From: Eubacteriales bacterium
Lineage (GTDB): Bacteria > Bacillota > Clostridia > Oscillospirales > CAG-272
Assembly (NCBI GenBank): GCA_045589215.1
Contig: JAZNOQ010000085.1
Span: 4,348-68,347 of the forward strand
Length of the DNA stretch: 64,000 nt
Reading direction: 5' to 3'
The translations under genes and the position numbers were made by a program. How positions within the stretch are numbered: the stretch's first letter is position 1; the number at the start of each line of letters is the position of its first letter. Below the pieces are notes generated by a model. It saw only the letters and a program-made list of their open reading frames with translations. It made no database searches and was not told the origin of the DNA. Shown here in pieces: positions 20,281 to 51,712 of the stretch.

Positions 20281-20309
20281 TTGACATTTTGGGCATTGTG
20301 TGGTATGAT
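20281..20309 (+). promoter_or_regulatory. sigma-A promoter of the giant SBP/permease operon
   Basis: TTGACA, a 17-nt spacer, then TGg-TATGAT, leaving a ~195-nt leader. Confidence 0.65.
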
Positions 20310-20369
20310 ATCAACATCAATATTAGGGCAAAATGCGGTCTATGCCGCGTCGACAGCGGCGCTTGAAAT

Positions 20370-20408
20370 CCGGGAGTGTTCCTCTCGGGTTTCATTTTCG
20401 TCTGTTTT
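20370..20408 (+). promoter_or_regulatory. terminator-like hairpin inside the operon leader (candidate attenuator)
   Basis: CCGGGAG-uguuc-CUCUCGG followed by GUUUCAUUUUCGUCUGUUUU. Flanking hairpins are GCCGC-gucgaca-GCGGC (20343-20359) and CCCGAA..UUCGGG (20410-20434). Confidence 0.45.
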
Positions 20409-20504: not shown

Positions 20505-23500
20505 ATGAAAAAGACGAAATTACAGCGCTTGATAGCTTTGCTTCTTGCGGCGGTATTTCTGATCTGCGGCGGTACCATAACCGTCGGCGCAACGGATGGA
20601 GGTGGATCGGAGGACGGCTCCTCGGGCAACTCGTCTACCACAACCGTTACGACTGCCGACATTAAGGCACTGCTGAATTCGATGACGTACGACGAGTACG
20701 TTGCGGCTTATTTTGACACGGTTCCCCGTGCAGAGGGAGAGCCTATTGTCATAAACGGCGTCGATTACGACCCCGAGCAGACCAACATAGGGTTTGACGA
20801 CGGCTCGGATGGCGTTTTTGACGACAGCTGTATCTCGGTCCGCGAATACCTTGGCGTTAAAGGGCTTTATACGCCCGGCAACGGCATCGTATCCTGGAAG
20901 ATCGATCAAATAACGAAGAAGACTCGTTATTCGATCAGCATTGAGTACTACCCGATCGAGAATAAGTCTGCTTCCATTGAACGTGTGTTCTACATCAACG
21001 GCTCGGTTCCGTTTAAGGAGGCGCGTTACCTGACCCTTTCAAAGGTTTGGAGAAATGCTTACCCGAACGGCTCGTTTGTCCTTGCAAAGGGTGAGAGCGA
21101 TGCGGATGGAGCGGCATACGTAAGCGCGGCGGCTGAAATCGGGATCAAGGCGAGCTACGACGCCGAGACGAGAACGGTATCATATGAGATGCCCGCATAT
21201 TGGACGCAGGATATTTCGGACCTCGCCAACGAGAAGCAGCTTCGCTTCTTCAAGAACGATATTGACAAAAACGAGATCAGACCCACCATCGAGCAGGTGC
21301 CCGAATGGCGTTCCTACGAGATGAGTGACTCGAACGGCTATTATACCGAGTCCTTTGAGTTCATCGTCGAGCCGAACAAGAACGGTGAGGTGATCCTCTC
21401 GCTCGAGGGCGTGAACGAGCCTATGGTGATCAAGAGCATTACGCTCTTTGCTCACGAGGATAACGTTTCGTACGAGCAATATCTGAAGGATCTCGGCGAC
21501 AAGGCTACCGCTTCGGGTCAGGATAAGATCAAGATCGAGGGCGAGGAGCTGCTTGCGGCTTCCTCCAAGACCATTTACGCGATCAACGATAACTCCTGCG
21601 CGATCAACTCTCCCACCGACACCACCCGTACGGTACTCAACACCATCGGCGGCGAAAAGTGGCAAACGGCAGGTCAGTGGGTGCGCTACGGCTTTGCGGT
21701 GCAGACCGCGGGTATGTACGACATCGCGATCCGTTACCGTCAGAACGTCCTCGACGGTCTGTATACGTCGCGTTCTCTTTCGATCTCTTCCTATTATAAA
21801 GGTGCGAACGGCGAGCTCGTTCGGTACGATAAAGCTACATATCTTGCACAGCACGGAAACACCGCAGGCTTCTATGACGGTGTTCCGTTCGACGAGGCTG
21901 CGAGACTTCAGTTCTCTTACGACCAGGATTGGCAATCGACCTTCCTAACCGCAGATGTTGACGGAGACAAGAACCTGCCGATCTACTTCGAGGATGGCGT
22001 CGTGTATATGATGGAGATCGAGGTCACCATCGGTGAGATGGGCGAGATCGTTCGTGAGGTCCAGGAAACGCTTGATGTTATCAATGACTGCTATCTGAAC
22101 ATTCTCCAGCTGACCGGTACGAACCCTGACGAATACCGCGACTACGGATTCTCGCGTATTATGCCCGATACCATCAACCAGATGGAGATGGCGGCGCAGA
22201 GACTTGCGGGGCCGAACTCCGACGGTGAGGGCGGTATTGTTAAGGCACTTGAGAACATTTCGGGCGAGGCGAGCTCGATGACCGCAACTCTGGAGCGTGT
22301 GGCATGGCTCCTCCACCGTATGACGGATGAGGATAACATCGCATCGAACCTCGGTCAGCTTAAGACCTATATCGGTACGCTCGGTACTTGGCTTGGCGAT
22401 GCAAAGACCCAGCCCCTTCAGCTTGACTACCTCGTGGTTCAGCCCACGAACGGAAAGCTGCCTAAGGCGACTCCGAACTTCTTTAAGACGATGGCTCATG
22501 AGTTCTCGAGCTTCTTCCAGAGCTTCATTCGAAATTACGACCGTATGGGCGCAACCGTTGAAGCTACCGATGCCGCGACCGAGGTATGGCTTGCATATGG
22601 CCGTGACCAGTCTCAGGTCATCCGTAATCTGATCAACAACGATTTTACTCCCAATAAGGAGGAGTTCGGCGATAAGGACGGCAACGAGATCATCGTTGAC
22701 CTGAAACTTGTCGCAGGCGGCACGCTCCTTCCGTCTATCCTTTCGGGTGCGGGTCCTGATGTTTATATCGGACTTGGCGAGGATAACGTAATCAACTACG
22801 CGATCCGCGGTGCACTCATTGCGATCGAAAATATGGAAGGCTTCAATGAAATGTGCCTCCAGGAATATGAGGACGAAAACGGTAATATTGTCGACAACTC
22901 GAAGAACGCACAGTTCAATGAGGCGGCAATGATCGTTATGGGCATTGAGGACGCTAAGGGGGATATGCATTACTACGGTCTCCCCGAGACGCAGGGCTTC
23001 AGTATGATGTTCGTGCGTGAGGATATCCTTGCTGACCTTGATATCGATATTCCCCGTACGTGGGATGACATCTACGCCGCGATCCCCACGCTTCAGGCGA
23101 ACAACATGCAGATCGGTGTACAGAACGACTACAAGATCTTCCTGTACCAGATGGGCGGCGAGCTCTTTGCGGATAACGGTATGAGAATCAATCTTGATTC
23201 CAACGTTGCGCTGACCTCGTTCAATATGATGTGTAATCTCTTTACACAGTACGGCTTCCCCTATAAGTACGACTTTGCAAACCGTTTCAGAACCGGTGAG
23301 ATGCCGATCGGCTTTGCAAGCTACACGGGTACCTACAACCACCTGAAGGTCTTCGCGACTGAGATCGAGGGCTTGTGGGGCTTCTACCCGCTTCCCGGTA
23401 TGATCAAGACCGACGAGAAGGGAAATGAGATCTATGACGAGAACGGTGATCCCGTGATCAACAACGTTGCGGTCTCTGCTTGCTCTGCGATCGTTATGAT

Positions 23501-24149
23501 CGTCGGATGCGACAACGAGTACAACGCATGGCAGTTTATGAGATGGCACGTAGGTGCTGATTGTCAGGCGACATACTCGGAGGAGATGTGTGCGATCATC
23601 GGTCCTTCCGCAAAGCACTCTACCGCAAACCTCCAGGCACTTGCAGATATGCCTTGGACCTCCGAGGAGCTTCTGCAGCTCGGAACGCAGTTCAACAATC
23701 TCGCATCTATCCCGAACTACCCCGGTTCCTACATCATCGGCCGTTACACCAACTTCGCATTCCTCTCGGCGTATAATAGCTCGGCAGACCCTACCGAGGA
23801 GCTGCTCTCCTATATCACCACGATCAACAAGGAGATCACGCGTAAGCGTGAGGAGTTTGAGCTTGAAACGCTCGAGATCGGTCAGACCCTCGCCGAAAAG
23901 AGGATCGGAGAGGCAGAGGCTGCTCTTAAAGCACTTCGCGAATCCGACTCTTGGAGCGCAAGCTACGATGCTCTTTATGAAAGATCGCTCGGAAGCTACG
24001 GTCTCCTCCATCAGACACAAGAAGACTACGCCGCACTCTTTGCTCTTGCTTCCGACTTTAAGACCGCAAACGCGACTCTGTTCGAGGAAGTCGTTGAGTG
24101 CATCAATGAGGCCGCTACGGCACTGAAGACTTACGAGGCTTATAAATAA
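20505..24149 (+). CDS. giant extracellular solute-binding protein: signal peptide + two CBM/beta-sandwich-like segments + helical module + family-1 (CUT1) SBP domain + helical C-terminal tail
   Basis: AGGAGGG RBS and a signal peptide (LIALLLAAVFLICGG..VGA|TD). A CBM6/35-like stretch is present (KIEGEELL...GQWVRYGFAVQTAGMYDIAIRYRQ). SBP-like blocks are EVWLAYGRDQ, LLPSILSGAGPDVYIG and WGFYPLPG. Confidence 0.75.
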   Translation: MKKTKLQRLIALLLAAVFLICGGTITVGATDGGGSEDGSSGNSSTTTVTTADIKALLNSMTYDEYVAAYFDTVPRAEGEPIVINGVDYDPEQTNIGFDDGSDGVFDDSCISVREYLGVKGLYTPGNGIVSWKIDQITKKTRYSISIEYYPIENKSASIERVFYINGSVPFKEARYLTLSKVWRNAYPNGSFVLAKGESDADGAAYVSAAAEIGIKASYDAETRTVSYEMPAYWTQDISDLANEKQLRFFKNDIDKNEIRPTIEQVPEWRSYEMSDSNGYYTESFEFIVEPNKNGEVILSLEGVNEPMVIKSITLFAHEDNVSYEQYLKDLGDKATASGQDKIKIEGEELLAASSKTIYAINDNSCAINSPTDTTRTVLNTIGGEKWQTAGQWVRYGFAVQTAGMYDIAIRYRQNVLDGLYTSRSLSISSYYKGANGELVRYDKATYLAQHGNTAGFYDGVPFDEAARLQFSYDQDWQSTFLTADVDGDKNLPIYFEDGVVYMMEIEVTIGEMGEIVREVQETLDVINDCYLNILQLTGTNPDEYRDYGFSRIMPDTINQMEMAAQRLAGPNSDGEGGIVKALENISGEASSMTATLERVAWLLHRMTDEDNIASNLGQLKTYIGTLGTWLGDAKTQPLQLDYLVVQPTNGKLPKATPNFFKTMAHEFSSFFQSFIRNYDRMGATVEATDAATEVWLAYGRDQSQVIRNLINNDFTPNKEEFGDKDGNEIIVDLKLVAGGTLLPSILSGAGPDVYIGLGEDNVINYAIRGALIAIENMEGFNEMCLQEYEDENGNIVDNSKNAQFNEAAMIVMGIEDAKGDMHYYGLPETQGFSMMFVREDILADLDIDIPRTWDDIYAAIPTLQANNMQIGVQNDYKIFLYQMGGELFADNGMRINLDSNVALTSFNMMCNLFTQYGFPYKYDFANRFRTGEMPIGFASYTGTYNHLKVFATEIEGLWGFYPLPGMIKTDEKGNEIYDENGDPVINNVAVSACSAIVMIVGCDNEYNAWQFMRWHVGADCQATYSEEMCAIIGPSAKHSTANLQALADMPWTSEELLQLGTQFNNLASIPNYPGSYIIGRYTNFAFLSAYNSSADPTEELLSYITTINKEITRKREEFELETLEIGQTLAEKRIGEAEAALKALRESDSWSASYDALYERSLGSYGLLHQTQEDYAALFALASDFKTANATLFEEVVECINEAATALKTYEAYK

Positions 24150-24290: not shown

Positions 24291-25238
24291 ATGCCTACAA
24301 AAGTGAAACAGAAACAAGCTGTTTCCAGAAAGGACATGACGAAAGCGCAATGGATCTGGAAGGAAATGAAGCGCAATAAGGTCGGCTACGCAATGATCGC
24401 CCCCTTTATGCTCGTTTTCACGCTTTTCACCGTTGTGCCGGTCGCATTGTCCATTTATTACAGCTTTACAGACTTTAACCTGCTCGAGACAGCCCAGTGG
24501 CGAGGAATTGAAAACTACATTCGTCTGTTCCTTGACGATGACATCTTCCTCATATGTGTGAAGAACACGTTTATGTTCGCGGTGGTCGTAGGCCCCGCGT
24601 CCTACCTGATTTCCTTCCTCGTCGCATGGTTCATCAACGAGCTTTCTCCGATCGTTCGTTCGATCGTTACCCTGATTTTCTACGCTCCGTCCATTGCGGG
24701 TCAGGTTTACCTGATTTGGGGTACTCTTTTCTCGAGTGACTCCTACGGATGGGTCAATGCAACACTATTGAATATGGGTATGATCAGTGAACCGATCGCC
24801 TTCTTCGAGGATGAGGACTACGTTATGCCGCTTTGTATCGTGGTCTCTCTTTGGACGTCACTCGGTACTGCGTTCCTGTCGTTTATCGCAGGTCTGCAGG
24901 GTATTGATCACTCGCTGTACGAGGCGGGTGCCGTCGACGGTGTCAAGAACCGTTGGCAGGAGCTGTGGTACATTACGCTTCCTACGATGAGACCGCAGCT
25001 GATGTTCGGTGCGATCATGGCGATCACGAACTCCTTCGGATTTGGCGGTATCGTTACCGCGCTGTGCGGATTCCCGTCGGTTAACTACTGTGCGCATACG
25101 ATCATGCACCATCTTGAGGACTATGGCGGACAACGCTTTGAGATCGGTTATTCTTCCACCATTGCTGTCGTCTTGTTCGTTATCATGATCGGTGCGAACA
25201 TGCTCGTCAAGAAAGTGCTTTCTAAGGTGGGTAAGTAA
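24291..25238 (+). CDS. carbohydrate ABC transporter permease (MalF-like), pair 1
   Basis: Six TM helices and an EAA loop (YEAGAVDGVKNRWQELWYITLPTMRP). Good RBS. Confidence 0.9.
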   Translation: MPTKVKQKQAVSRKDMTKAQWIWKEMKRNKVGYAMIAPFMLVFTLFTVVPVALSIYYSFTDFNLLETAQWRGIENYIRLFLDDDIFLICVKNTFMFAVVVGPASYLISFLVAWFINELSPIVRSIVTLIFYAPSIAGQVYLIWGTLFSSDSYGWVNATLLNMGMISEPIAFFEDEDYVMPLCIVVSLWTSLGTAFLSFIAGLQGIDHSLYEAGAVDGVKNRWQELWYITLPTMRPQLMFGAIMAITNSFGFGGIVTALCGFPSVNYCAHTIMHHLEDYGGQRFEIGYSSTIAVVLFVIMIGANMLVKKVLSKVGK

Positions 25239-25239
25239 T

Positions 25240-26112
25240 ATGGCAAAGTTAAGAACAAGAAGACACAAGGTCGTCCTTGCCCGCTCACGAGGCGGTGATG
25301 CGGCGATATCGGTTATCCTTGTAATTTTGGGCGCGTTCATGTTCCTCCCGATGTATTACGTCGTGATACAGTCCTTTAAGCCCCTTGATGAGCTTTGGAT
25401 GTTCCCGCCCCGATTCTACGTAATCAATATGACCCCTAAGAACTACACGGATCTCTTTACATTGATGAGCACCTCGTGGGTTCCGTTCTCGCGTTACATT
25501 TTCAATACTGTTCTGACCTCGGTAGCAGGTACGTTCGGTAACCTGTTCTCGGCATCTCTTGCGGCATACGCAATTTCCAAGATCAAGTTCCCGGGACGAA
25601 AGTTTACGTTTAAGCTCGTCCGTACCTCGCTGATGTTCCACTCGACCGTTACCGGTATCACGTCCTTTATGATTATGTCGAGTCTTAAGCTCGTCGATAC
25701 ATATTGGGCGCTGATCCTTCCGGCACTCGGTTATAAGCTCGGCCTTTACCTGATGAAGCAGTTTATGGACACCAACGTTCCCAACACGGTCCTTGAAAGT
25801 GCCCGTCTCGACGGCTCGGGAGAATTGCGGACCTTCTGGGTCATTGCAATGCCTATGGTTAAGCCCGCATGGCTGACACTGATCATCTACTGCTTCGAGG
25901 ATCTGTGGAATAGAGGCTCTTCGACCTATATTCATTCGGAGCAGCTCAAATCGTTTAACTACGCAATCGGTCAGATCATGGCAGGCGGTATCAAACGTGC
26001 AGGTGCGCATGCCGCTTCCACGGTCATTATGATGCTCGTCCCGATCGCGGTATTCGTTATTACCCAGTCGAACGTCATCGAAACGATGGGCTCCTCGGGC
26101 ATGAAGGATTAA
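25240..26112 (+). CDS. carbohydrate ABC transporter permease (MalG-like), pair 1
   Basis: The ATG lies 1 nt after the upstream stop. EAA loop is ESARLDGSGELRTFWVIAMPMVKPA. Confidence 0.9.
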   Translation: MAKLRTRRHKVVLARSRGGDAAISVILVILGAFMFLPMYYVVIQSFKPLDELWMFPPRFYVINMTPKNYTDLFTLMSTSWVPFSRYIFNTVLTSVAGTFGNLFSASLAAYAISKIKFPGRKFTFKLVRTSLMFHSTVTGITSFMIMSSLKLVDTYWALILPALGYKLGLYLMKQFMDTNVPNTVLESARLDGSGELRTFWVIAMPMVKPAWLTLIIYCFEDLWNRGSSTYIHSEQLKSFNYAIGQIMAGGIKRAGAHAASTVIMMLVPIAVFVITQSNVIETMGSSGMKD

Positions 26113-28289: not shown

Positions 28290-31200
28290 ATGAAATTCAG
28301 AAGAATAATTTCAATGTTCCTGGCCGTATTGTTTGTGATCGGTACGTGCTCGGTGACGATCGGTGCAGCCGATACGTCCACGGGAACATCGAATTCGTCC
28401 TCCTCCGGTACTGTTGCGGAGAAGGTAACGTATAGCTATTACACCAACAGTAGTCCAAACCCTGAGGATGCTACCGTCCAGTATTTCGTTGATAAGGATC
28501 TCGAATGGACGGAGGCGAAGGTGTTTGACACTCCGAACGAAAAGCTCCAAACGATGGATCTTCGTCTTCAGCAGAACGGATATCAGCTGTATGTAGACGA
28601 ATACTCGGGTGAGGTGGCTTGCAGAAACCTTACCACCGAGGAGATCCTCTTCACGAACCCTTATAATATCGGTGCTTCTACGGCAAAGGGCAATCAGCTG
28701 TACGAGCTAATGTCGCAGATCCTCGTTGAGTATACCGATAAATCGACCGGCGTTACGACGACCTTCACCAGCTTTAAGGAAACCTCGGTCAGAGGTCAGC
28801 TCAAGGTGAAGAACATCAAGAACGGTCTCCGTGTTGAATATACCGTCGGTCGTGAGGAAGCGAAGATGCTCGTTCCGAGACTGATCGAAAAGACCCGCTT
28901 TGAAACCAAGATCCAGTCCGTGCTCGAAGAGGCACTTGTTGCCGAGGGTGAAGTCGGTCGTCTTAAGATCAATAAGGTCGTAAAGTGGTATAAGCTTTAC
29001 GATATCTCGCAGGCGACCAACGACATTGAATACGACTCGATGATCGCGATTGTTCCGATCGCAAGAGAGATGCCGGTATACAGTATCGACGAGTCTGTAA
29101 CCTCGGTTCAGCTTGCCGCGATCGAAATGCTCATCAAGACCTACGCATCCTCGTACACCTACGAGGATCTGGATTACGACCACGAGCTCACCGAATACGA
29201 GGGCGAGGAACAGAACCCGCCGCTCTTTAAGATGGCGCTTGAGTACATCATTTCGGACGAGGGACTTACCGTTACGCTTCCCGCAAACGGTCTCCGTTTC
29301 GACGAGTCTCGTTACACGCTTGAAAACATCTCCGTCCTGCCCTATATGGGTGCAGGTATGTCGCCCAACGAAGGTTATACCTTCTTCCCGGACGGCTCCG
29401 GTGCGCTCTTCGACTTTGAGGAGCTGCGTCAGCTGTCCTCGACCAGCATCAGCGGCCAGGTTTACGGCGTTGACTACGCATATCAGACCATTGCGGCGAC
29501 CCACCAGGAGACCATTCGCTATCCTGTATTCGGCGTCGTAGAGGTTCAGCAGCTCGAGAAGCTTGCTCCTGACCTTTCGATCCGGGAATATGAGCAGGAT
29601 CGCGGTTTCGTTGCGATCATTACTGAGGGTGACTCGATGGCAAAGCTTACCTCCGTACACGGCGGTAAGACGACGCACGAATATCACTCGGTCAAAATGA
29701 CCTACTACCCGCGTCCGAAGGACTCCTACAACCTGAAGGATGCGCTTTCGTCGACTTCTAACGGTAGCGGCGCTATGTGGGAAGTCGTTTCCTCGAGAAA
29801 GTACACCGGCAACTATACCGTGAAGTACGTAATGCTGACCGATACCGACGTCGCAGAGCAGATACAGCACGATATGGGTGAGGGAGAGACCTTTGATTAC
29901 TACGAATGCTCCTATATGGGTATGGCATCGGCGTATCGCGATTATCTCCTCGATACCGGCGTTCTGACTCCCCTTACGGAAGAGGATATCAGCGACGATA
30001 TCCCGCTTTACATCAATACCTTCGGTGCGATCGAGACGACTCAGAAGATCATGTCGATCCCCGTTGATGTAACCGTTGCTTTGACCTCCTTCAAGGACGT
30101 TGCGGAAATGTACGCACAGCTCGAGAAGGTTGGCATTACCAATGTAAACTTCAAGCTTACGGGTTACTCAAACGGCGGTATGTACGCGACTGTTCCGTAT
30201 TACCTCGATTGGGAAAAGGCCGTCGGCGGTGACAACGGCTTTGAGGCACTCCTCGACGACGCAAACAAGAAGGGCTATAAGGTCTTCCCGGACTTTGACT
30301 TCGTTTACGTTTCCGAAACCGGAATGATCGACGGTCTCGCACTTCGTAAACACGTCGTTAAGAGTATCGACAACCGTTACACCAGCCGTCGTGAATACTC
30401 TGCGACCAAGCAGGCGTTTGTCAGCTACTTCGAACTTTGTATCTCGCCCGCTTACTACGATCACTTCTACGAGAAGCTCACGACGAACTATCTGAAGCAC
30501 TTCGAAGATACCGATTATAACACCTCGATCTCGATCGGAACGCTCGGCTCCGAGCTGAACTCGGACTTCGATGAAGACGATCCGTTTAACCGTGAGGACT
30601 CGAAGCAGTCTACGATCAAGGCGTTTAAGTATTTCGACGAGAATTACGATTACGTAATGACCAATGGCGGTAACGCTTATACTTGGAAGTACGTAGATTA
30701 CATTCTCGATGTGCCGCTTGATTCGAGCCGCTTCATCAGAGCAAGCGCGTCGGTTCCCTTTATGGGTATCGTTCTCCACGGATATGTTCAGTTCTCCGGA
30801 ACGCCTATCAATATGGAGGGTAATCTCAATTACGCATTCCTGAAGGCGATCGAGAACGGTGCTTCCGTAAACTTCGTTCTTTCTTATCAGAATACGACTA
30901 CGCTGAAGAATGATATGCGTCTCAGCAAGTATTATTCGATTCGTTACGATATCTGGTTCGATGACGTTGTAACGATCTACAATAACCTGAATTCGCTCCT
31001 TTCTGACGTACAGCTTGAGACCATCGTTGATCACGAATTTATCGACGCACTTCGTGTTGCCGATCTTGACGAGGCAAAGAATGATCTCGACGCGGCGATC
31101 CTCGATTCGATCGAGGCAGAGCGTGAGGCTCTTGATAAGCAGAAGCTCGAAGAAATACAGACCATTCTGAATGCACGTCAGCTGATCCGTATCAACAGCG

Positions 31201-33017
31201 CGGCTGTTACCGCAGAGCTTGAAAAGCTGATGGGATACAAGGAATCGCTTATTTTGAAGCTCGGCTATGTCGAGAACGAGGATGGTGTTTCCTACACCAG
31301 CGGTGAGCTTGCACTTGCGATCAATAACTTTAACGCCGCAGTTCAGAATTATATCAAGGTTTACAACGGCGGTGACTGTGGTGCCAATGAGACCACGGGA
31401 ACCTCCGCAATTCTGGGTGACGCAGCCCGTGCGATGAACAATGCGGCGGCAGAGCTGCAGAAGTTCTACGATCAGGCGCAGAACGGTTCGGTCAACTATA
31501 TTGCCAACCAGGCGTATACCGCTGAGCTTGCAGCACGCGAGGCATATGAGAATGCAATCGCGGCATACGAAATCCTCGCTGCTACATCTGCAGTTTCGGA
31601 TTACATCAGAGAGCTCGCATGGGGACTTGTCGAGGATACCGCTGAGGCGGTAGCGACCATCGGCTCGATCGCGCCCAGCGTTTACGAAATGGCACAGGAC
31701 GCATACGATTATGCGATCAGCGGTGCCGCAACTCTGACCGATGCGAACGGTGATGCGATCTGCGAGATCAGCACCTATCAGTTCTACCTCTACGCACTTT
31801 GCGGTTACCTCGGTGTACAGCCGACCGTAAAGATCGATCCGAAGAACGTGCTTCGTTGCTATGAGATCGGCCTCATTAAGAGCGATCTTACGGCAAAGGC
31901 AGCGCTTGATCAGATCTGCAATATCTTGAAGATTGAGGACGCAACGGTTGCTCCTGATTATGCGGCTCTCTTTGCAGGCTATCTGAGCAAGTCCGGTCAG
32001 GTCGGATTTGAAACCAGATACAACACCTTCGCCGAAAGATGGCAGGAATATCAGGAGATCTACGAGCGATATAAGAACAAGAAGGCGACCTCGATTGATC
32101 TCGCGAATGCTCTGACTCCTTTGATGAATGCTGCAATTTACCTCAACACCGAATTCGGCTATTTCGTCGATCTGTTTGAGGCTTCGCCCAAGTCTGCGAA
32201 CAGCATCATTACCTTCTACGAGAATTCGCTTGATCTTCAGGCTCAGGCGAATGCCTTCTCGGCTGCATTTGCGGCTTGCTATGCTGCGGAAAATCCGTCC
32301 TCGGCACAGCTGAAGACGCTTGCCGATGCGGCGAAGATGCTCTCTGCATCCTTCGATACGATTTCCGACGATTATGCGATCGTTCCGAGCGATTCCGCAA
32401 CCGGTATCAACTCGTATGCTAAGAATGCCGAAAAGCATATGACGGTTCTTAAGAACGCTATGGAGACTGCGAAGTCGGTGCTTGCAACGCTTCAGAGGAC
32501 CCCGATCGCCGAGGGTGAAGAGGGCTATGCAGAGCGTCAGGCAGCGATCGCTTTGGCCCTTGAATACGTTCAGTATACCGAACGCAATTACAACGAAGTT
32601 GAAGCGGCTGCTAACGAGGTTGTTGATCTTGCGGAGAAGGCTTACGAAGAAGCTTCGAAGATCGATGAGGTTGTGAAGTACTGCAAGGCGGTCGAAGAGG
32701 TGACCTTTGCTGCAGAGGAGGATGAACGCCTTCTCGACGTGGCTCCCAAGTTCATCGAGCTTCTCCATCCGTACGATTATATCGCTCCGGAGGTAGAGGA
32801 GGAGATCCTTGAGGATGAGGAAGAGGTATATAACAAGTACAGCTCGGATAAGAACAGTGTCGTGCTTGTAACCTATTCGAACGGAACCAGATTCCTGTTG
32901 AATTATTGCAACTATGCAATCGTGGTGGAAATCGACGGAGTTTCTTACCGCGTGGAATCTCAGAGCTATCAAAAGATTCCCGTGGTGGAAAGTGAGGTAG
33001 AAGACAATGACCAGTGA
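28290..33017 (+). CDS. 1575-aa secreted DUF5696-like protein (putative glycan-processing TIM-barrel core) with ~600-aa Ala-rich all-helical C-terminal extension
   Basis: Signal peptide (FLAVLFVIGTCSVTIGA|AD). The core has FPDGSGALFDF, TGYSNGGMY..WEKAVGG, FPDFDFVYV, IGTLGSELNSDF and VPFMGIVLHGY. Residues ~900-1500 are Ala/Glu/Leu-rich helices, followed by a small terminal beta domain. The DUF5696 label is from memory. Confidence 0.55.
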   Translation: MKFRRIISMFLAVLFVIGTCSVTIGAADTSTGTSNSSSSGTVAEKVTYSYYTNSSPNPEDATVQYFVDKDLEWTEAKVFDTPNEKLQTMDLRLQQNGYQLYVDEYSGEVACRNLTTEEILFTNPYNIGASTAKGNQLYELMSQILVEYTDKSTGVTTTFTSFKETSVRGQLKVKNIKNGLRVEYTVGREEAKMLVPRLIEKTRFETKIQSVLEEALVAEGEVGRLKINKVVKWYKLYDISQATNDIEYDSMIAIVPIAREMPVYSIDESVTSVQLAAIEMLIKTYASSYTYEDLDYDHELTEYEGEEQNPPLFKMALEYIISDEGLTVTLPANGLRFDESRYTLENISVLPYMGAGMSPNEGYTFFPDGSGALFDFEELRQLSSTSISGQVYGVDYAYQTIAATHQETIRYPVFGVVEVQQLEKLAPDLSIREYEQDRGFVAIITEGDSMAKLTSVHGGKTTHEYHSVKMTYYPRPKDSYNLKDALSSTSNGSGAMWEVVSSRKYTGNYTVKYVMLTDTDVAEQIQHDMGEGETFDYYECSYMGMASAYRDYLLDTGVLTPLTEEDISDDIPLYINTFGAIETTQKIMSIPVDVTVALTSFKDVAEMYAQLEKVGITNVNFKLTGYSNGGMYATVPYYLDWEKAVGGDNGFEALLDDANKKGYKVFPDFDFVYVSETGMIDGLALRKHVVKSIDNRYTSRREYSATKQAFVSYFELCISPAYYDHFYEKLTTNYLKHFEDTDYNTSISIGTLGSELNSDFDEDDPFNREDSKQSTIKAFKYFDENYDYVMTNGGNAYTWKYVDYILDVPLDSSRFIRASASVPFMGIVLHGYVQFSGTPINMEGNLNYAFLKAIENGASVNFVLSYQNTTTLKNDMRLSKYYSIRYDIWFDDVVTIYNNLNSLLSDVQLETIVDHEFIDALRVADLDEAKNDLDAAILDSIEAEREALDKQKLEEIQTILNARQLIRINSAAVTAELEKLMGYKESLILKLGYVENEDGVSYTSGELALAINNFNAAVQNYIKVYNGGDCGANETTGTSAILGDAARAMNNAAAELQKFYDQAQNGSVNYIANQAYTAELAAREAYENAIAAYEILAATSAVSDYIRELAWGLVEDTAEAVATIGSIAPSVYEMAQDAYDYAISGAATLTDANGDAICEISTYQFYLYALCGYLGVQPTVKIDPKNVLRCYEIGLIKSDLTAKAALDQICNILKIEDATVAPDYAALFAGYLSKSGQVGFETRYNTFAERWQEYQEIYERYKNKKATSIDLANALTPLMNAAIYLNTEFGYFVDLFEASPKSANSIITFYENSLDLQAQANAFSAAFAACYAAENPSSAQLKTLADAAKMLSASFDTISDDYAIVPSDSATGINSYAKNAEKHMTVLKNAMETAKSVLATLQRTPIAEGEEGYAERQAAIALALEYVQYTERNYNEVEAAANEVVDLAEKAYEEASKIDEVVKYCKAVEEVTFAAEEDERLLDVAPKFIELLHPYDYIAPEVEEEILEDEEEVYNKYSSDKNSVVLVTYSNGTRFLLNYCNYAIVVEIDGVSYRVESQSYQKIPVVESEVEDNDQ

Positions 33018-33969
33018 TATGAATCTTCAAAATACCGTAAGCACTCCGAAGTCGGGGAAGAAGAAAAAGGCTTCTTCCCTGAACGCCCGGAAGGCTCGCG
33101 CAGGTTGGTGGTTCGTTGCCCCCTTTATCGTGGGCTTTGTCCTGATCTATCTGCCGATCCTTATTGAGTCGATCACCTATACCTTCTGCGAGGTTACAAC
33201 TCTCGGCCCCGGTGAATTCGAAACGAAATTCGTCGGCTTCGAGAACTATCAGAATGCATTCTTGGTGGATGCGAAATTCGTTCCCACCCTGCTCGGGGGT
33301 CTGCAGACCCTTGCGCTGAATATCCCGATGATCGTTATTTTCTCACTCTTTATGGCGGTCATTCTCAACCAGAAGATGGTCGGTCGTACCTTCTTCCGTG
33401 CAGTATTCTTTATCCCCGTCGTTCTTTCGGTCGGTATTCTTGAGAACCTTGACCCGAACTTCGACCCCGGTGCCGACGGTATTTCGGACGGCTCGGGAGA
33501 GAATGCGACTGAGGACCTAGTCTCTGCATTTGACCTTGCAATGCTCTTCCAGAGTATGAAGATCGGGGAACAGCTTGTTCAGATCGTTGTTGATGCGATC
33601 AACGGCGTTCAGGAGATCATCAGCCGTTCGGGCGTACAGTTCCTGATCTTCTTGACCGGTCTGCAGTCGATCTCGCCTGCGATCTACGAGTCGTGTCAGA
33701 TCGACGGCGCGACCTCTTGGGAGACCTTCTGGAAGATCACTCTGCCGATGATATCACCGATGATCCTTGTTAATGCGATCTATACCGTCATTGACAGCTT
33801 TACGGTGAATAACGTAGTCATGGACTATGTTCTGAATTACAGCGCGAACGTTACGGATGGTATTGCTTCGGCAATGGCTTGGTCGTACGTCTTGATCGTT
33901 GTCGGAATCATTGGAATTGTGGCACTTCTGCTCAAGGGCTTTGTCTTCTATCAGAAGCGTGATGCATAA
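33007..33969 (+). CDS. carbohydrate ABC transporter permease (MalF-like), pair 2
   Basis: The start overlaps the upstream stop by 11 nt. EAA loop is YESCQIDGATSWETFWKITLPMISP. Confidence 0.85.
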   Translation: MTSDMNLQNTVSTPKSGKKKKASSLNARKARAGWWFVAPFIVGFVLIYLPILIESITYTFCEVTTLGPGEFETKFVGFENYQNAFLVDAKFVPTLLGGLQTLALNIPMIVIFSLFMAVILNQKMVGRTFFRAVFFIPVVLSVGILENLDPNFDPGADGISDGSGENATEDLVSAFDLAMLFQSMKIGEQLVQIVVDAINGVQEIISRSGVQFLIFLTGLQSISPAIYESCQIDGATSWETFWKITLPMISPMILVNAIYTVIDSFTVNNVVMDYVLNYSANVTDGIASAMAWSYVLIVVGIIGIVALLLKGFVFYQKRDA

Positions 33970-33987: not shown

Positions 33988-35106
33988 ATGAATCAAGAAA
34001 CGATGCCAAAGGTTAAAAAAGAAACGAAAAATAAAATTCGCGTTGAATTTGACAGAACTCCGCTGAAAGAGCGTCTGATGTCAAAGTTTCTCAGCCTGTT
34101 CTTTCTGAAGAAGGTTGTGTGGTATATTTTTCGTCTCGTCCTTCTGATTGGTATTGCATACGTAATCCTTTCTCCCTTCCTCACGATGCTTATGAGATCC
34201 TTCATGAGCCTCGACGATCTTGCTGACCCCACGGTCATGCTGATCCCGAAGCATTGGAACGTCAGGATATATAAGGAAGTCTGGACACAGAACGGATATC
34301 TTGAGGCCTTTGTCAATACCTTCATCCTCTCCGGCAGTACGGCGTTGATCCAGACGTTCGTCTGCTGTCTGATCGGATACGGTCTTGCAAAGTTCAAGTT
34401 CAAGGGCAACAAGCTGATCTTTTTCGCAGTCATCTTTACGATGATCGTTCCGCATCAGGCTCTTTACAGCTCAATGCACATCAATTTCTCCTCCTTTGAC
34501 GTTTTTGGAATCTTCCAATTCCTGAACGGAGGCGGAATCGATCTGTTCGGTATCACGACGATCAACAACAGCTTCTTCGAGATGATCGATATTTTCCCGG
34601 ACACCGATGCTTTTAATAAGGTGTTCCAGAAAAACGGTCTGAACTTGATCGGCTCGGACATCCCGATTTATCTGCTTTCGTTTACCGGACTTGCGTTTAA
34701 GAACGGTCTGTATATCTTTATGCTTCGTCAGTTCTATCAGGGCGTTCCGGATGAGCTTGAGGAATCGGCATATATGGATGGATCGGGTACCTTCCGAACC
34801 TTCATACAGATCATTCTGCCGCTGTCGATCCCGATGATGATCACGGTGTTCATTTTCGCGTTCTGCTGGCAGTGGACGGATGACTTCTATGCGCAGGCAT
34901 TCAATCCGACGAATAAGAGCCTGCTGATGGATGATGTCATTCAACCTCCGGTTACAATGTCCATAGAGGTTGCGGAGAACCCGGACTATAAGACCGTTAT
35001 CAACAATACGGCGGGTCTGATGGTGCTTGCACCGCTTTTGATCCTTTACTGCGCGGGACAGAAGTTCCTCGTACAGGGTATCGAAAGCTCCGGTCTTGCA
35101 AACTGA
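33988..35106 (+). CDS. carbohydrate ABC transporter permease (MalG-like, extended), pair 2
   Basis: GGAAAGGAGG RBS and EAA loop EESAYMDGSGTFRTFIQIILPLSIPM. At 372 aa it is longer than usual. Confidence 0.85.
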   Translation: MNQETMPKVKKETKNKIRVEFDRTPLKERLMSKFLSLFFLKKVVWYIFRLVLLIGIAYVILSPFLTMLMRSFMSLDDLADPTVMLIPKHWNVRIYKEVWTQNGYLEAFVNTFILSGSTALIQTFVCCLIGYGLAKFKFKGNKLIFFAVIFTMIVPHQALYSSMHINFSSFDVFGIFQFLNGGGIDLFGITTINNSFFEMIDIFPDTDAFNKVFQKNGLNLIGSDIPIYLLSFTGLAFKNGLYIFMLRQFYQGVPDELEESAYMDGSGTFRTFIQIILPLSIPMMITVFIFAFCWQWTDDFYAQAFNPTNKSLLMDDVIQPPVTMSIEVAENPDYKTVINNTAGLMVLAPLLILYCAGQKFLVQGIESSGLAN

Positions 35107-35141: not shown

Positions 35142-35175
35142 GGGGGCTATCTCAACGAGGTAGCCCCCCTTTTTC
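35142..35175 (+). terminator. intrinsic terminator ending the seven-gene operon
   Basis: GGGGGCTAT-ctcaacgag-GTAGCCCCCC followed by TTTTT. Confidence 0.85.
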
Positions 35176-35176
35176 C

Positions 35177-35230
35177 AAAAACAAAAGAGCCATCGACGAC
35201 CGGCTTGCACGCCGTATCCGATGGCTCTCT
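35177..35230 (-). terminator. intrinsic terminator of the GDPD gene
   Basis: On the minus strand, the stem AGAGCCATCG...CGATGGCTCT is followed by TTTTGTTTTT. Confidence 0.7.
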
Positions 35231-35250
35231 TTGGTTTTGTTACGGTTATT

Positions 35251-35973
35251 TTATTCGAGAATGTTCGAGGTAATGTAATCTATGCCCCAAGCGATCAGAT
35301 CTTCGGCATTTTCAAGCTGATCCACCGTCCAGCAATTGACGCGAATGCCGTTTTCGTGGCAGAGTGCGATCTTTTCTGCATCGAGTGCCTTGTAATGAAT
35401 ATCAAGGTCGAGATCTTGTGCCTTGAGTCGGTCGATCAGATCCTCGGAAAATTTTTTGGTGATAAACTGTGCCGCTTGTGTGGGATATTTCTTACGGAGA
35501 AATACCAGATTTTCATAGCAAGACGAAATAAAGATCGTTTTGTCGAGATAGCCGAGTTCGTCGATGATCCTGCAGATCTCATAGATATCCTCTTCGAAAA
35601 ATGCTTTTTTCAGCTCAAGTACTGCATACTTTTCGTAATATTTGCAGACGTTGATGTATTCCTCCAGATTGGGCATACGAAGGTCGATGCGTCCTCTTTT
35701 GCCCTCCTTGTCGGTGAGGGGAAGCGCACGAAGGGTATCGTACGTGGTTTCCTCGACAACCATGTTGTCGATCGCAACGCGAGCGGTGGTATCATCGTGG
35801 AAGAGAATGTACTTTCCGTCGCCGGTCTTTTGGATGTCGGTCTCGATGCCGTAATAGGAACGGTTACCTGCCGCAACGAATGCGGGCATGGTGTTTTCCT
35901 TCTCAAGTCCGCTGCAGCCGCGATGTGCGACCATCAGGGTCTTTCCTTTGTTTTTTATGTGGATGGTATCCAT
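35251..35973 (-). CDS. glycerophosphodiester phosphodiesterase (GDPD family)
   Basis: MVAHRGCSGLEKENTMPAF and IETDIQKTGDGKYILFHDD signatures. GGAGGAA RBS. Confidence 0.85.
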   Translation of the reverse strand: MDTIHIKNKGKTLMVAHRGCSGLEKENTMPAFVAAGNRSYYGIETDIQKTGDGKYILFHDDTTARVAIDNMVVEETTYDTLRALPLTDKEGKRGRIDLRMPNLEEYINVCKYYEKYAVLELKKAFFEEDIYEICRIIDELGYLDKTIFISSCYENLVFLRKKYPTQAAQFITKKFSEDLIDRLKAQDLDLDIHYKALDAEKIALCHENGIRVNCWTVDQLENAEDLIAWGIDYITSNILE

Positions 35974-36024
35974 GGCGTGATTCCTCCGAGCGGTTGCAGA
36001 TATGATTTGCGGAAAACGCAGTGA

Positions 36025-37580: not shown

Positions 37581-39845
37581 TTAATTCGGCGTAAAGAATT
37601 TCTTCAGTGAAATAAAGGTATCGGTCGCGTATTTTGTAAGGTTTGCGTTATACGAAACCGAGAGGAGGAGAGACGCGATACACGCGACGGTGAAGAAAAG
37701 AAGCACCAAAGAAGTGATCGCCTTTTTGCCTTTCGGGATAACCGTCGAGCTGCCGCTTGCTTCTTCTGCTTGCCCATCTGTACCTGAAAACGCGGAAGAG
37801 AGAGCAAAGGCGAGAAATACTGCCGCGAGAGCCCCCATAACGGTCAGATCGGCAACGTAACGGAAGATCACTCCACCGAGTGAAAAATCAAGAAGTGCAA
37901 CCGTGAAGATACCGACGAGGGTACACATAAGGAGGACCTTTTCGTAGCGCGTGCGGTCTTTCAGAAACAGCGCGGCAGGAGAAAGCAGGAGCGCACGGAA
38001 GAGGGGCAGGGCAAAGAGCCCGAAGCTTGCGTCGATATAAACGTAGTGTCCGTAATCCGAGAGGCTCTCGCGGTTGATCGAAAGGAAGGGGAAGAACGCC
38101 GAGAGCTTCAGATCCTGCAGAAAATAGTGATAGAGCGCGGGGAAGATGTCACCGAGGGACAGCTCGTTGTAGCGGACGTCGCTGACCGTCAGCTGATAGG
38201 AGGTGCCGAATTCAAAAATCGATCCGAACCGCGCTTTGTTGAGACAAAGCAGGACAGTAAGCCCGATCAGCACGGGGAGACCGAGCGCGATGAGCGACAG
38301 CGCGATCTCCTTTGGGGGCGCGAAAAAGCTACGCATCCGCATCAAGCGTGCCGCGAAACGTTTGCTAAGTGAGCTGTGAGCATCGTTCGGGGGATCTTCG
38401 TGGCCGTTCGGCTCATCCGATTCGGAGGGCTCGGCGCGCCGCTTCAGGACACGGAAGACGAGATACGGGATCACGATGAATGCGGCAAGCAGAGCGATGT
38501 TTAGCCTCGAATGAAGAATGAATGCAAAGGAGAGCCCCGCAAGAACGTAGAAAACCGTCCGTGTGCGGAACCGCTCGGCTTCGGCTGCCTTCAGGAGAAG
38601 GTAGAGGAATACAGATAGAAAGGCACTTGCCGCAAGTGTTGCGATATAATAGAAGGGTGTTACGCTTCGTGCGATCAGAAGCATAAGAGAGCCGACGAAC
38701 GCTGTGACCGCTCCGAGCCAGACAACGGGCAGGGGAAGTCTCTGCTTTTCGTGGAGATCTGCCCATTTCAGTACACAAAGCGGGATAAAGACCGCAGCGA
38801 TGAGGAGAAATACCGTCATCACGATGCCGTCGGAGGGAAGAGCACCCGAGAAGAGATAATAGGGGAAATAAACGAGTAGGATGGGGGCTACTCCGAAATA
38901 CGAATAATATTTTCCGTCGTAATACGCGCGGTCCCAAAGGGGATCTGCATCAACGCGGGTGGCGTAGTCGTAGGGGTTTTCAAGAGAAAGCATCTCGTCA
39001 GAGACCGGTATGTCAAGATGAAGCTGTCCCTTCATAAAAGCATCAAACTGCTGGATATAGGGCTGATAGTTGCGTACAGCGCCCTGAAGCGGATACGCGA
39101 TCGCGTCCTTTTGATAGAGAAAGAGGGACGAAAAGAAGATCGCGAGGAAAAGCGTCACGAGGACGGCGGTTTTTGCGCCGTACCGATGGCGGAGGTTCTT
39201 CGGATCGTAATTGGTGTAGAAAAGCCCCGTCACCGAAAGCAGAGCCGGAATGATGAGGAGAAGTGCTACGAGCAGAAAACGAAGGAATGAGAACGCAAAC
39301 GCAGGTGTTTCGTTGATCCGAACCTCGCGAAGCTCGATCGCACCCTTGAGGTTTGAGAATGAGAGCCGCAGATTTCCCTTGTCTTCGTTATCGATCGAAA
39401 GATGAAGCAAGACCGAAGAGAATTCGCCGCCCTCACCGACCGCAAAGGCTTCGTTTGCAACGGTAATGAAGCCGCCGCTCGACCAGGTCGTGCGCGGATC
39501 GGTCGCTGTGACCATTATCTCCGGAGCAGGAAGGGTGTCCCTTGTGTTCGGATTCGTGTATCGGATGTCAAAGGCTACTGTGGAGATGTCGCCGGGGATC
39601 TCTTTAAAGGTAATAGACACCGAGCCCGACTGTGACGGGGTGAGAAGATACGGGTCGCTTTCGTCGGTCTTTTCGACGGTGCAGTAGGGGAGAAGAGAGA
39701 TCTCTTCTTTTCCTGCGTTATAGATAAAGAAACGGCTGAAATTCGCAAAGAGAAGCTCGAATATGAGCGCAAGGAGAACGCAAAGGATCACCGCCCGCAT
39801 CATACGGACGGAACTTGGGTATTTGCTGAAAATCGATGGCTTCAC
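37581..39845 (-). CDS. large polytopic membrane protein with N-terminal extracytoplasmic beta domain (possible GT-C-like glycosyltransferase); GTG start
   Basis: AAAGGAGAG RBS lies 6 nt before the GTG at 39845, with an alternative ATG at 39803. One TM helix, a ~190-aa beta-rich domain and at least 12 TM helices are present. The loop motif PYDYATRVDADPLWDRAYYDGKYYSYFG is also present. Confidence 0.5.
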   Translation of the reverse strand: MKPSIFSKYPSSVRMMRAVILCVLLALIFELLFANFSRFFIYNAGKEEISLLPYCTVEKTDESDPYLLTPSQSGSVSITFKEIPGDISTVAFDIRYTNPNTRDTLPAPEIMVTATDPRTTWSSGGFITVANEAFAVGEGGEFSSVLLHLSIDNEDKGNLRLSFSNLKGAIELREVRINETPAFAFSFLRFLLVALLLIIPALLSVTGLFYTNYDPKNLRHRYGAKTAVLVTLFLAIFFSSLFLYQKDAIAYPLQGAVRNYQPYIQQFDAFMKGQLHLDIPVSDEMLSLENPYDYATRVDADPLWDRAYYDGKYYSYFGVAPILLVYFPYYLFSGALPSDGIVMTVFLLIAAVFIPLCVLKWADLHEKQRLPLPVVWLGAVTAFVGSLMLLIARSVTPFYYIATLAASAFLSVFLYLLLKAAEAERFRTRTVFYVLAGLSFAFILHSRLNIALLAAFIVIPYLVFRVLKRRAEPSESDEPNGHEDPPNDAHSSLSKRFAARLMRMRSFFAPPKEIALSLIALGLPVLIGLTVLLCLNKARFGSIFEFGTSYQLTVSDVRYNELSLGDIFPALYHYFLQDLKLSAFFPFLSINRESLSDYGHYVYIDASFGLFALPLFRALLLSPAALFLKDRTRYEKVLLMCTLVGIFTVALLDFSLGGVIFRYVADLTVMGALAAVFLAFALSSAFSGTDGQAEEASGSSTVIPKGKKAITSLVLLFFTVACIASLLLSVSYNANLTKYATDTFISLKKFFTPN

Positions 39846-40088
39846 GCGGCACTCTCCTTTCCAATCTGCGGGACAAACATATATAATGTAGTATAGCACA
39901 AATCAGAGCTTCTGTCAAGGCAGGGGATAAATGTAAAAAACTTGAGCTTGCTTTGATTTTTTGAAAAATAATGAGCCATAATTCATATAGGGTTCACATA
40001 TTTTTTATATAATGACTTTGAATAGGTTGTGTACGCGAATTGCCGTGCAGAGTTAGATATAGAGTTAGACAGAAAGGTTTCAACAGGT

Positions 40089-50700: not shown

Positions 50701-51564
50701 CTATAATTCCTCTCGTGCGGCGCGGCGGAAATCCGACGGAGATGCTCCGACGGTGCGGCTGAAGAGGCGCGTGAAGTAATACGGCGAAGAGAACCCGACG
50801 GCGTAAGAGATCTCCGAGATCGAAAGCGGAGTGCTGCGTAAAAGCTCCTGCGCCTTCCCGATGCGAACGTTTTGGATAAATGCGGTCACACTCTGTCCTG
50901 CGTGGCGGCGGAATACACGCGCCGCATACTGCGGGGAGATGCTCATTTCCTCACTGAGCGACGAGAGGGAGAGGGGCTCGGGATAGTGCGCTTCGATGTA
51001 GTCGCGCATTGCGAGATAAGTGTTTTTGCTTTTGGGGGCAGGGGATTCCTCTGTCGGTACGGTGTAATTTTCGCTCAGCAGGAGCATGATGCGAAGAAGG
51101 GCGAGATCAAGCCGCGTTTTATCGAAGGTGTGCGAGCACGGAGCGTGACGAAGCGCGGATACGGCAAGATGCTCGACCTGCTCGCGCGACGCATTGATCG
51201 GCGTTGCGGAAGGCAGGAAAAATCCCGTTTCGCGCGGCTGAAGCTGTCCGATGAGCGGATGAGAGTCGGATTTCGTAAAATACAGCTTGTCTTCTTCCGT
51301 TCGGGACATCGTAAAGTGAAAATAGCAGTAATCGCAGTCCTCGACGGCACAGACCGAGTAGGCCGTATCCTCTTCGAGGAGAACAGCGGTTCCCGCGGGA
51401 AGCGAAACGTTTTGGGGGCCGAGTGAAAAACGCAGAATTCCGCTGAAAACATAGTAAAGCGCAGGCCTTTTCAGCCTTCTGCCTTGCTTCTGCCAGCCTG
51501 TTTCGTATTTCATACGCCCTGCGATGAGGGTTTGGGGGAGGGAATCGAGAGAAAAGATCGGCAT
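50701..51564 (-). CDS. AraC-family transcriptional regulator (cupin + HTH)
   Basis: C-terminal AraC HTH (ISEISYAVGFSSPYYFTRLFSRTVGASPSDFRR). The start is set at the ATG at 51564 after an AAAGGAGA RBS. Confidence 0.8.
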   Translation of the reverse strand: MPIFSLDSLPQTLIAGRMKYETGWQKQGRRLKRPALYYVFSGILRFSLGPQNVSLPAGTAVLLEEDTAYSVCAVEDCDYCYFHFTMSRTEEDKLYFTKSDSHPLIGQLQPRETGFFLPSATPINASREQVEHLAVSALRHAPCSHTFDKTRLDLALLRIMLLLSENYTVPTEESPAPKSKNTYLAMRDYIEAHYPEPLSLSSLSEEMSISPQYAARVFRRHAGQSVTAFIQNVRIGKAQELLRSTPLSISEISYAVGFSSPYYFTRLFSRTVGASPSDFRRAAREEL

Positions 51565-51712
51565 AGCAGGTCTCCTTTCGTTTTTTTTATTGTAGCACAG
51601 GGCTTGAGAAAAGTCAAGAGGTTTCGAAAAATGCAAAAAAATGCAGGGGTAGTCAATGGAAACATAGGGGCAATGTGTGTTATACTGAAAAAAACATTTG
51701 GAGGTTATAAAA

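Follow-up and report, generated by a model that had tools for sequence, protein, structure and literature searches.

What does a giant exported protein do when its gene lies between two pairs of sugar-transporter permeases? The question is raised by a 64,000-nucleotide (nt) stretch of the genome of a Eubacteriales bacterium (contig JAZNOQ010000085.1), hereafter the window, in which the open reading frame (ORF) at 28290..33017 of the forward strand was confirmed to encode a protein of 1575 amino acids (aa), whose residue numbers are used unless stated otherwise. This protein is a member of Pfam family DUF5696 (PF18952) and is encoded within a seven-gene cassette for an ATP-binding cassette (ABC) importer with two translocators. 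We favor, at a probability of roughly 0.55, the reading that it is the extracytoplasmic glycan-processing subunit of this importer, its catalysis being putative. Family membership, fold, export, cassette synteny, the glycan context of relatives, conserved polar residues, and the insertion that interrupts its conserved domain all contribute to this reading.

The original prediction, made from the bare sequence, called the protein "DUF5696-like", which was an understatement. Residues 292-918 match profile positions 2-576 of 612 with 446.2 bits (E = 2.6e-133), a score that exceeds the gathering score of the family (25.6 bits). The family comprises 4010 clusters at 50% identity, and its members are annotated by NCBI as 'DUF5696 domain-containing protein', as exemplified by WP_073386913.1 of Butyrivibrio fibrisolvens D1 and WP_110042929.1 of Paenibacillus cellulosilyticus. 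A search of NCBIfam with the window protein gave no match, and a literature search for DUF5696 or PF18952 returned no paper naming either. The protein thus belongs to an uncharacterized but already catalogued family and is ordinary in that narrow sense. Its sole hydrophobic segment is an N-terminal signal peptide, so that export by the Sec pathway is predicted; like the other two exported proteins of the cassette, it has no lipobox. Relatives of the short form, which are described below, carry either an N-terminal signal peptide or a membrane anchor. About 440 stretches encoding a long-form relative were found in GTDB species-representative genomes. The best 80 of these all belong to metagenome-assembled genomes (MAGs), nearly all of them labelled uncultured Clostridia or Eubacteriales, and the samples whose source is named came from animal guts or faeces.

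The fold of the protein was predicted with AlphaFold2 and family alignments in two models, one of residues 1-1200 (predicted local distance difference test, pLDDT, 73.6) and one of residues 376-1575 (pLDDT 77.3), both of which were compared with the PDB by Foldseek. The top match of either model was NagBb, the alpha-N-acetylgalactosaminidase of glycoside hydrolase (GH) family 129 (5wzp), with E = 3.5e-14 and a target template modeling (TM) score of 0.64 for the first model and E = 5.1e-9 and a target TM-score of 0.47 for the second. Endo-alpha-N-acetylgalactosaminidases of family GH101 (5a59, 2zxq, and 3ecq; E = 1e-8 to 1e-6) ranked second, and were followed by a GH31 cycloalternan-forming enzyme and then by GH13 amylases. 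This structural comparison, which had been proposed as a check, agrees at the level of predicted fold with the earlier suggestion that the core consists of a beta-sandwich and a (beta/alpha)8 barrel of glycoside-hydrolase type. All five motif blocks quoted then are present and fall on invariant columns of a 60-sequence alignment (FPDGSGALFDF, 366-376; TGYSNGGMY, 624-632; FPDFDFVYV, 666-674; IGTLGSELNSDF, 749-760; VPFMGIVLHGY, 822-832). It also holds that the core cannot be placed in a CAZy family by sequence, since sequence searches of NCBIfam, Pfam, and the PDB gave no match to a glycoside hydrolase family. Overall, the models indicate that the body of the protein, composed of the N-terminal domain, the beta-sandwich, the barrel, and a C-terminal beta domain, has the fold of GH129 and GH101 retaining glycosidases.

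The resemblance to these families has clear boundaries. The window protein shares with NagBb (PDB 5WZP/5WZN) and with the GH129-like enzyme DagB (5OPQ) an N-terminal beta-sandwich, a (beta/alpha)8 barrel, and a C-terminal beta domain. However, identity to NagBb within the structural alignment is only 10-12%, no similarity is detectable with hidden Markov models (HMMs), and the window protein is enlarged by a further N-terminal domain and by its long helical insertion. Furthermore, NagBb is cytoplasmic and lacks a signal peptide (PMC7232152), whereas the window protein appears to be exported. The GH101 enzymes (EngBF, 2ZXQ; SpGH101, 3ECQ/5A55) are extracellular, multidomain proteins with a partially broken barrel (PMC8106489). 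They constitute the second-best fold match with low TM-scores (0.2-0.3), share no sequence similarity with the window protein, differ from it in accessory domains, and are found outside transporter cassettes. Neither sequence similarity to GH101 nor its D764/E796 catalytic pair was found in the window protein, and the resemblance is one of fold only.

Conserved polar residues delineate a candidate active site. A tally over 81 long-form and short-form sequences (threshold of at least 95%) revealed five residues that are 100% conserved: D368 (in PDGSG), D395 (in YG.D), D759 (in SD[FY]), N795, and E855. R768 and N841 are conserved in 98% of the sequences, and W889 and H915 in at least 95%. D759 follows barrel strand 4, in a loop about 57% into the barrel, roughly where Asp486 of DagB (equivalent to Asp435 of NagBb) falls, a correspondence of relative position and not of residue-level superposition. 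In terms of the catalytic pair of NagBb (Asp435/Glu478), the invariant D759 is positionally plausible for the nucleophile, and the acid/base place, near D803, is not invariant. In DagB catalysis also draws on an acidic residue of the N-terminal domain, and the Glu of NagBb is not retained (PMC5698469).

The most conspicuous feature of the protein is a long helical region, which had been described as a C-terminal extension followed by a separate beta domain. One half of this description stands. Residues ~926-1515 are rich in Ala, Glu, Leu, and Tyr as claimed, are rendered by AlphaFold as near-continuous helices with few short hairpin breaks (mostly at pLDDT 80-97), and contain no internal repeat, the best self-alignment scoring 42 against a shuffled maximum of 47. 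The models also place five strands of a small beta domain after the helices, at ~1524-1563. The other half does not stand, since the helices form an insertion inside the DUF5696 domain. The main Pfam match ends at profile position 576 of 612, and within the last 70 residues of the protein ~1516-1551 match profile positions 572-605, weakly (E = 0.031) but exactly in register. Consequently, the profile is not covered contiguously, its end lying ~600 aa downstream of the main match. In contrast, the proteins of B. fibrisolvens D1 (839 aa) and P. cellulosilyticus (757 aa) cover profile positions 3-612 without a break and without helices. Direct alignment confirmed this arrangement, with the short-form junction ...SHELLSE / LVKVTYDNGTRIYVNY bracketing the entire helical region and the insertion site falling between profile positions ~576 and ~572-577. 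Lachnospiraceae and Paenibacillaceae commonly encode short forms (~830-900 aa) that carry the same C-terminal motif. The window protein has in common with other PF18952 members the N-terminal export signal, the beta-sandwich, the barrel, the C-terminal beta motif, and the seven-gene neighborhood; compared with the WP_073386913.1 and WP_110042929.1 forms (757-839 aa), it alone has the ~590-aa helical insertion.

Within the clade of gut Clostridia to which the window belongs, the insert measures 199-965 aa (median 275) and the whole protein about 1170 to more than 2000 aa, and the ~590-aa insert of the window protein is mid-range. Alignment of the nine closest full-length relatives is nearly gap-free across the insert down to 29% identity, with divergence about twice as fast as in the core, which suggests a folded and selected but fast-evolving module. 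Since the insert is flanked by the last helix of the barrel on one side and by the C-terminal beta domain on the other, its ends must be close to each other, and it would therefore project from the body as an arm. Profile searches of the PDB, Foldseek, and comparison with the cassette proteins revealed no convincing structural or sequence relative of the helical region, and no similarity to the giant substrate-binding protein, the Yip1 protein, or the permeases of the cassette. The Umb1 umbrella-toxin particle (8w20) was rejected as a homologue of the region, being a local Foldseek match only with a TM-score of 0.08-0.12. An HMM of the C-terminal beta domain matched none of the other ORFs in the cassette loci. 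Note that one long-form homologue (P0109; locus L003/L004, 10001-13585) is named "cell envelope integrity protein TolA" in one public source, a name that is almost certainly wrong and prompted by the abundance of Ala and Glu in the helical insertion.

The cassette consists, in order, of a giant substrate-binding protein (SBP), permeases P1a and P1b (pair 1), a membrane protein with NHL, TPR, and Yip1 regions, the DUF5696 protein, and permeases P2a and P2b (pair 2; Table 1). Past the first junction, its intergenic gaps measure 1-23 nt. In the window it is bounded by the best promoter-like site and by a strong terminator-like hairpin. The membrane protein has a signal peptide and carries its NHL beta-propeller on the extracytoplasmic side; a TPR region, a single transmembrane helix, and a Yip1 domain of five helices complete it. 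Butyrivibrio and other Bacillota encode its NHL and YIP1 parts as separate genes. EAA loops are present in both permease pairs, and the two permeases of pair 2 should consequently be working ABC translocator subunits. The giant SBP has positional orthologues in 67 loci and also in Butyrivibrio and Paenibacillus. Its N-terminal region of ~700 aa (residues 1-730 of the SBP; 20505-22700) matched no family at E <= 10. Some stretches of this region resemble carbohydrate-binding beta-sandwich motifs by eye, and relatives show faint matches to Golvesin_C.

Importers of the carbohydrate uptake transporter 1 (CUT1) class, such as those of the MalEFGK2, UgpABCE, and GanSPQ types, and the polysaccharide utilization loci of Gram-positive bacteria commonly rely on a shared MsmX/UgpC ATPase, and it is usual in Firmicutes for ATPases of the MsmX type to be encoded elsewhere. 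The window cassette contains the two BPD_transp_1 permeases with EAA loops and the SBP_bac_1 protein that define the CUT1 type. Its permeases are UgpA/UgpE-like or MalF/MalG-like as in that class, and the ATPase is likewise encoded elsewhere or, in Paenibacillus, adjacent to the cassette. No MsmX/UgpC-like ATPase, ordinary SBP, or classical GH was found elsewhere within the window, and the cognate ATPase gene is thus missing from it. In contrast to CUT1 importers, cassettes of the window type have two permease pairs and an SBP of ~1000-1350 aa, and the NHL-propeller/Yip1 membrane protein and the DUF5696 protein are obligatory components. A literature search on combinations of Yip1, NHL, and polysaccharide utilization loci retrieved no relevant paper.

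Synteny provides strong evidence that the seven genes form a unit. In 84 loci with long-form DUF5696 relatives (L001-L084), the complete order was found 63 times, and the remaining loci hold compatible fragments of the same order, consistent with truncation at contig ends. The flanks vary from locus to locus and are of housekeeping nature, including Suf genes, enolase, purine synthesis, and alanyl-tRNA synthetase in relatives, and a Mrp antiporter and an aminotransferase in the window. Clade-wide identity is ~75-78% for pair 1, ~57% for the Yip1 protein, ~55% for pair 2, ~50% for the SBP, and ~47% for the DUF5696 protein. The length of the DUF5696 protein correlates negatively with that of the NHL/TPR/Yip1 protein (Spearman rho = -0.43, p = 5e-4), probably a result of phylogenetic structure, and weakly with that of the SBP (rho = 0.25, p = 0.05).

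The same gene order occurs in Butyrivibrio fibrisolvens and Paenibacillus cellulosilyticus, where identity of the DUF5696 protein has fallen to 24%. Each of the seven window proteins finds its best match in its positional counterpart in these genomes; P2a, for example, is 39% and 32% identical to the P2a proteins, compared with ~25% to P1a. This pattern indicates that the two permease pairs diverged before Clostridia and Bacilli split. Outside the clade of the window, we examined the context of eight Bacillota loci, cultured or other. Seven of the eight place the cassette in a polysaccharide-utilization setting that combines transporter, enzyme, and regulator, as Gram-positive polysaccharide utilization loci do, with GHs and either LacI or two-component regulators in the flanks. 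These are GH43, a histidine kinase and response regulator, and two SBPs in Butyrivibrio fibrisolvens; GH43, a histidine kinase, and two SBPs in Acetatifactor; LacI, two GH53 genes, and one SBP in a Roseburia MAG; GH43, an SBP, GH35, LacI, and GH42 in a metagenome contig (locus L093); LacI, an SBP, and GH113 in Paenibacillus alkalitolerans; LacI, an SBP, and GH26 in Cohnella nanjingensis; and LacI, an SBP, GH26, and GH113 in Paenibacillus catalpae. The ordinary SBPs beside the cassette measure 455-631 aa. In the eighth locus, that of Paenibacillus cellulosilyticus, a ugpC/msmX-type ATPase lies directly upstream of the cassette, which has no GH, regulator, or directly adjacent ordinary SBP. The setting in relatives implies that the system is a glycan importer.

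Under the favored reading, the barrel and loops of the beta-sandwich would bind a glycan outside the cell and cleave or remodel it, with the invariant residues D368, D395, D759, R768, and N795 as the candidate site. The products would then be imported by the adjacent permease pair, energized by an ATPase of the MsmX/UgpC type encoded elsewhere. In the clade of uncultured gut Clostridia, the barrel and the C-terminal beta domain are separated by an inserted helical arm, of ~590 aa in the window protein, that is folded but evolves fast.

Several observations weigh against this reading. As far as the literature searched shows, no DUF5696 member has been characterized. Pfam searches at E <= 10 of the N-terminal domain, the core, and the helical region returned nothing besides DUF5696, and a PDB sequence search (phmmer and two family profiles) returned no GH, only spurious matches to coiled coils and interferon-gamma. 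The position expected for the acid/base of NagBb (about D803) is not invariant, E855 appears on the wrong side of the barrel in the model, and no catalytic pair can be assigned from relative positions alone. In addition, the cassette accompanies enzymes for mannan, galactan, and arabinan or arabinogalactan, which fits a single linkage-specific activity poorly. Finally, the loci examined in the clade of the window have no neighboring GHs, regulators, or ordinary SBPs. The window itself holds a transporter and the DUF5696 protein only, without the degrading enzyme or regulator of a polysaccharide utilization locus, and in this it differs from the cassettes of cultured members. The clade has either lost these neighbors or keeps them elsewhere.

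The main rival interpretation, which we consider unlikely but worth serious attention, is that of an ancillary or scaffold subunit without catalysis. A GH-like ectodomain that has lost hydrolase activity, or never had it, would stabilize, position, or gate pair 2 and the Yip1/NHL protein, with the helical arm contacting other proteins or spanning the cell wall. An analogy is offered by rBAT and 4F2hc, whose GH13-like ectodomains play an ancillary role for heteromeric amino-acid transporters. The constancy of the cassette while the flanking GHs change (GH26/GH113, GH53, or GH43) suggests a role independent of substrate, and the DUF5696 gene is always found immediately upstream of pair 2. The Paenibacillaceae forms look like type II membrane-anchored proteins, membership in a GH family is undetectable by sequence, and, judged from secondary-structure register only, an invariant Asn (N795) closes barrel strand 5, the place of the acid/base in GH13 enzymes. 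However, three 100%-invariant Asp residues together with invariant Arg, Asn, and Glu, retained down to 24% identity, are more typical of an active or ligand-binding site, and neither the C-terminal domain nor the helical region has counterparts in the other cassette proteins.

A second rival derives from the junction with pair 2. The original prediction noted that the stop codon of the DUF5696 gene (TGA, 33015-33017) and the start codon of P2a (ATG, 33007-33009) overlap by 11 nt, took this as a classic translational coupling that fixes stoichiometry, and proposed that the protein may substitute for a missing second SBP; in this reading it would deliver substrate to pair 2. The overlap itself was confirmed, and the start of P2a is indeed ATG 33007 and not 33019, as it aligns with the MT[KN][DE] start conserved in all relatives. 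Yet the overlap is not conserved. Of 80 relatives, 77 end the DUF5696 gene 9-34 nt (median 18) before the P2a ATG, and the 11-nt overlap is confined to the window and its nearest relative (L005), two others having a possible 1-nt overlap by longest-ORF call. In these two nearest sequences the frame reads ~9 codons past the ancestral stop (ending ...VVESEVEDNDQ), across the Shine-Dalgarno site. Conserved P2a starts are each preceded by GGAGG or GAGGT, and since P2a retains its own Shine-Dalgarno site, fixed stoichiometry is not implied. By called coordinates, short forms of Paenibacillaceae show 4-nt overlaps at the same junction, and the split NHL and Yip1 genes overlap as well. Tight packing thus appears from the sequences to be a property of the whole operon, and the 11-nt overlap an incidental, lineage-specific extension of the frame. 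The symmetrical order (exoprotein-permease-permease, twice), the absence of a second SBP from the window and from loci of the same clade, and the tightness of the P2a junction in all relatives would all be expected of an SBP substitute. The protein nevertheless has neither an SBP fold nor a Pfam SBP match, and seven of the eight outside-clade loci, including those of cultured relatives, combine it with one or two ordinary SBPs. It is therefore a constant component of the system and not a stand-in for a missing SBP, and we regard substitution as improbable. The broader claim of a conserved functional link between DUF5696 and pair 2 is supported by strict synteny.

Least probable of all is a stand-alone secreted mucin-type alpha-N-acetylgalactosaminidase with GH129/GH101 function and only incidental proximity to a transporter: it would suit the best structural matches (NagBb of GH129 and the GH101 endo-enzymes) and the origin of all close relatives in animal-gut MAGs, but it is at odds with strict synteny with six other genes across Clostridia and Bacilli, with soil relatives in Paenibacillus and Cohnella that adjoin plant-mannan enzymes, with an identity to NagBb of 10-12%, and with the fact that even the GH129-like DagB differs in activity and catalytic set (PMC5698469).

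The glycan-processing reading can be extended to the cassette as a whole. It is conceivable, although we hold this picture to be speculative and doubtful, that the seven proteins constitute a Gram-positive surface "utilisome" with a logic akin to that of SusC/D in Bacteroidetes. A Yip1-anchored NHL propeller, the giant SBP, and the GH129-like DUF5696 protein would be arranged over two ABC translocators to capture, process, and import long glycans. In uncultured gut Clostridia this system would stand alone in a housekeeping context, with a helical arm of 200-965 aa reaching through the cell wall or anchoring in it.

The features of the cassette and of the DUF5696 protein are collected in Table 1.

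Table 1. Coordinates of the cassette, its signals, and the domains of the DUF5696 protein in the window.
Feature	Position	Strand	Basis or remark
Promoter-like site, TTGACA-17-TATGAT with TG extension	20281..20309	+	11/12 consensus matches; best upstream of cassette; consensus match only
Leader hairpin, 13 bp, then T-run	20364-20394	+	Between promoter-like site and SBP start codon (20505)
Gene 1, giant SBP, 1214 aa; signal peptide; SBP_bac_1 at its residues 731-1014	20505..24149	+	Pfam
Gene 2, permease P1a, UgpA/MalF-like, BPD_transp_1	24291..25238	+	~75% identity across clade
Gene 3, permease P1b, UgpE/MalG-like	25240..26112	+	Probable start ATG 25240, 1 nt after P1a stop
Gene 4, NHL/TPR/Yip1 membrane protein, 711 aa	26131..28266	+	Domain searches
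Gene 5, DUF5696 protein, 1575 aa	28290..33017	+	ORF and Pfam
Signal peptide, residues 1-26 (...VTIGA/AD)	28290..28367	+	Cleavage site inferred from sequence
N-terminal domain, residues ~45-290	28422..29159	+	Conserved in family, outside Pfam model
Beta-sandwich, residues ~313-517; invariant PDGSG (D368) and YG.D (D395)	29226..29840	+	Model and alignment
(Beta/alpha)8-barrel-like domain, residues ~560-907; D759, R768, N795, N841, E855	29967..31010	+	Model and alignment
Ala-rich helical insertion, residues ~926-1515	31065..32834	+	Lineage-specific, absent from short forms
C-terminal beta domain, residues 1516-1566	32835..32987	+	Last ~35 positions of DUF5696 profile
Shine-Dalgarno-like GTGAGGT for P2a	32992..32998	+	Within DUF5696 coding sequence
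Gene 6, permease P2a, 320 aa, EAA loop (ESCQIDGA...ITLP)	33007..33969	+	Start overlaps DUF5696 stop by 11 nt
Gene 7, permease P2b, 372 aa, EAA loop (EESAYMDGS...IILP)	33988..35106	+	Pfam and motif reading
Terminator-like hairpin, 12 bp stem, 8 GC pairs, T-rich tail	35142..35178 (hairpin 35142-35168)	+	36 nt after P2b stop

The leader hairpin, which had no match in Rfam, could be a transcription attenuator or an antitermination target. A 267-aa ORF at 35221-36024 (+) was rejected as a member of the cassette, lying beyond the terminator, having no Pfam match, and being matched in one close relative only; it overlaps a 240-aa ORF on the minus strand and is probably no real gene. Elsewhere in the window, a 666-aa DUF6259 protein (53771-55771, +) near a regulator of the AraC family (50701-51636, -) may be another uncharacterized glycan-related gene pair, and a 772-aa ORF (37581-39899, -) has no Pfam match.

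Relative to the literature searched, the assignment of the GH129/GH101 fold, the recognition of the helical region as a clade-specific insertion, and above all the ancient, strictly conserved seven-component cassette with two translocators are new. The DUF5696 protein is never found alone, being one of seven co-inherited components of a two-translocator ABC cassette for sugar import that is widespread in Firmicutes. That a broad clade of uncultured gut Clostridia carries it next to housekeeping genes hints at a role in the core physiology of these organisms. Furthermore, a mode of glycan import by Gram-positive bacteria of gut and soil becomes testable in the tractable genera Paenibacillus, Butyrivibrio, and Roseburia.

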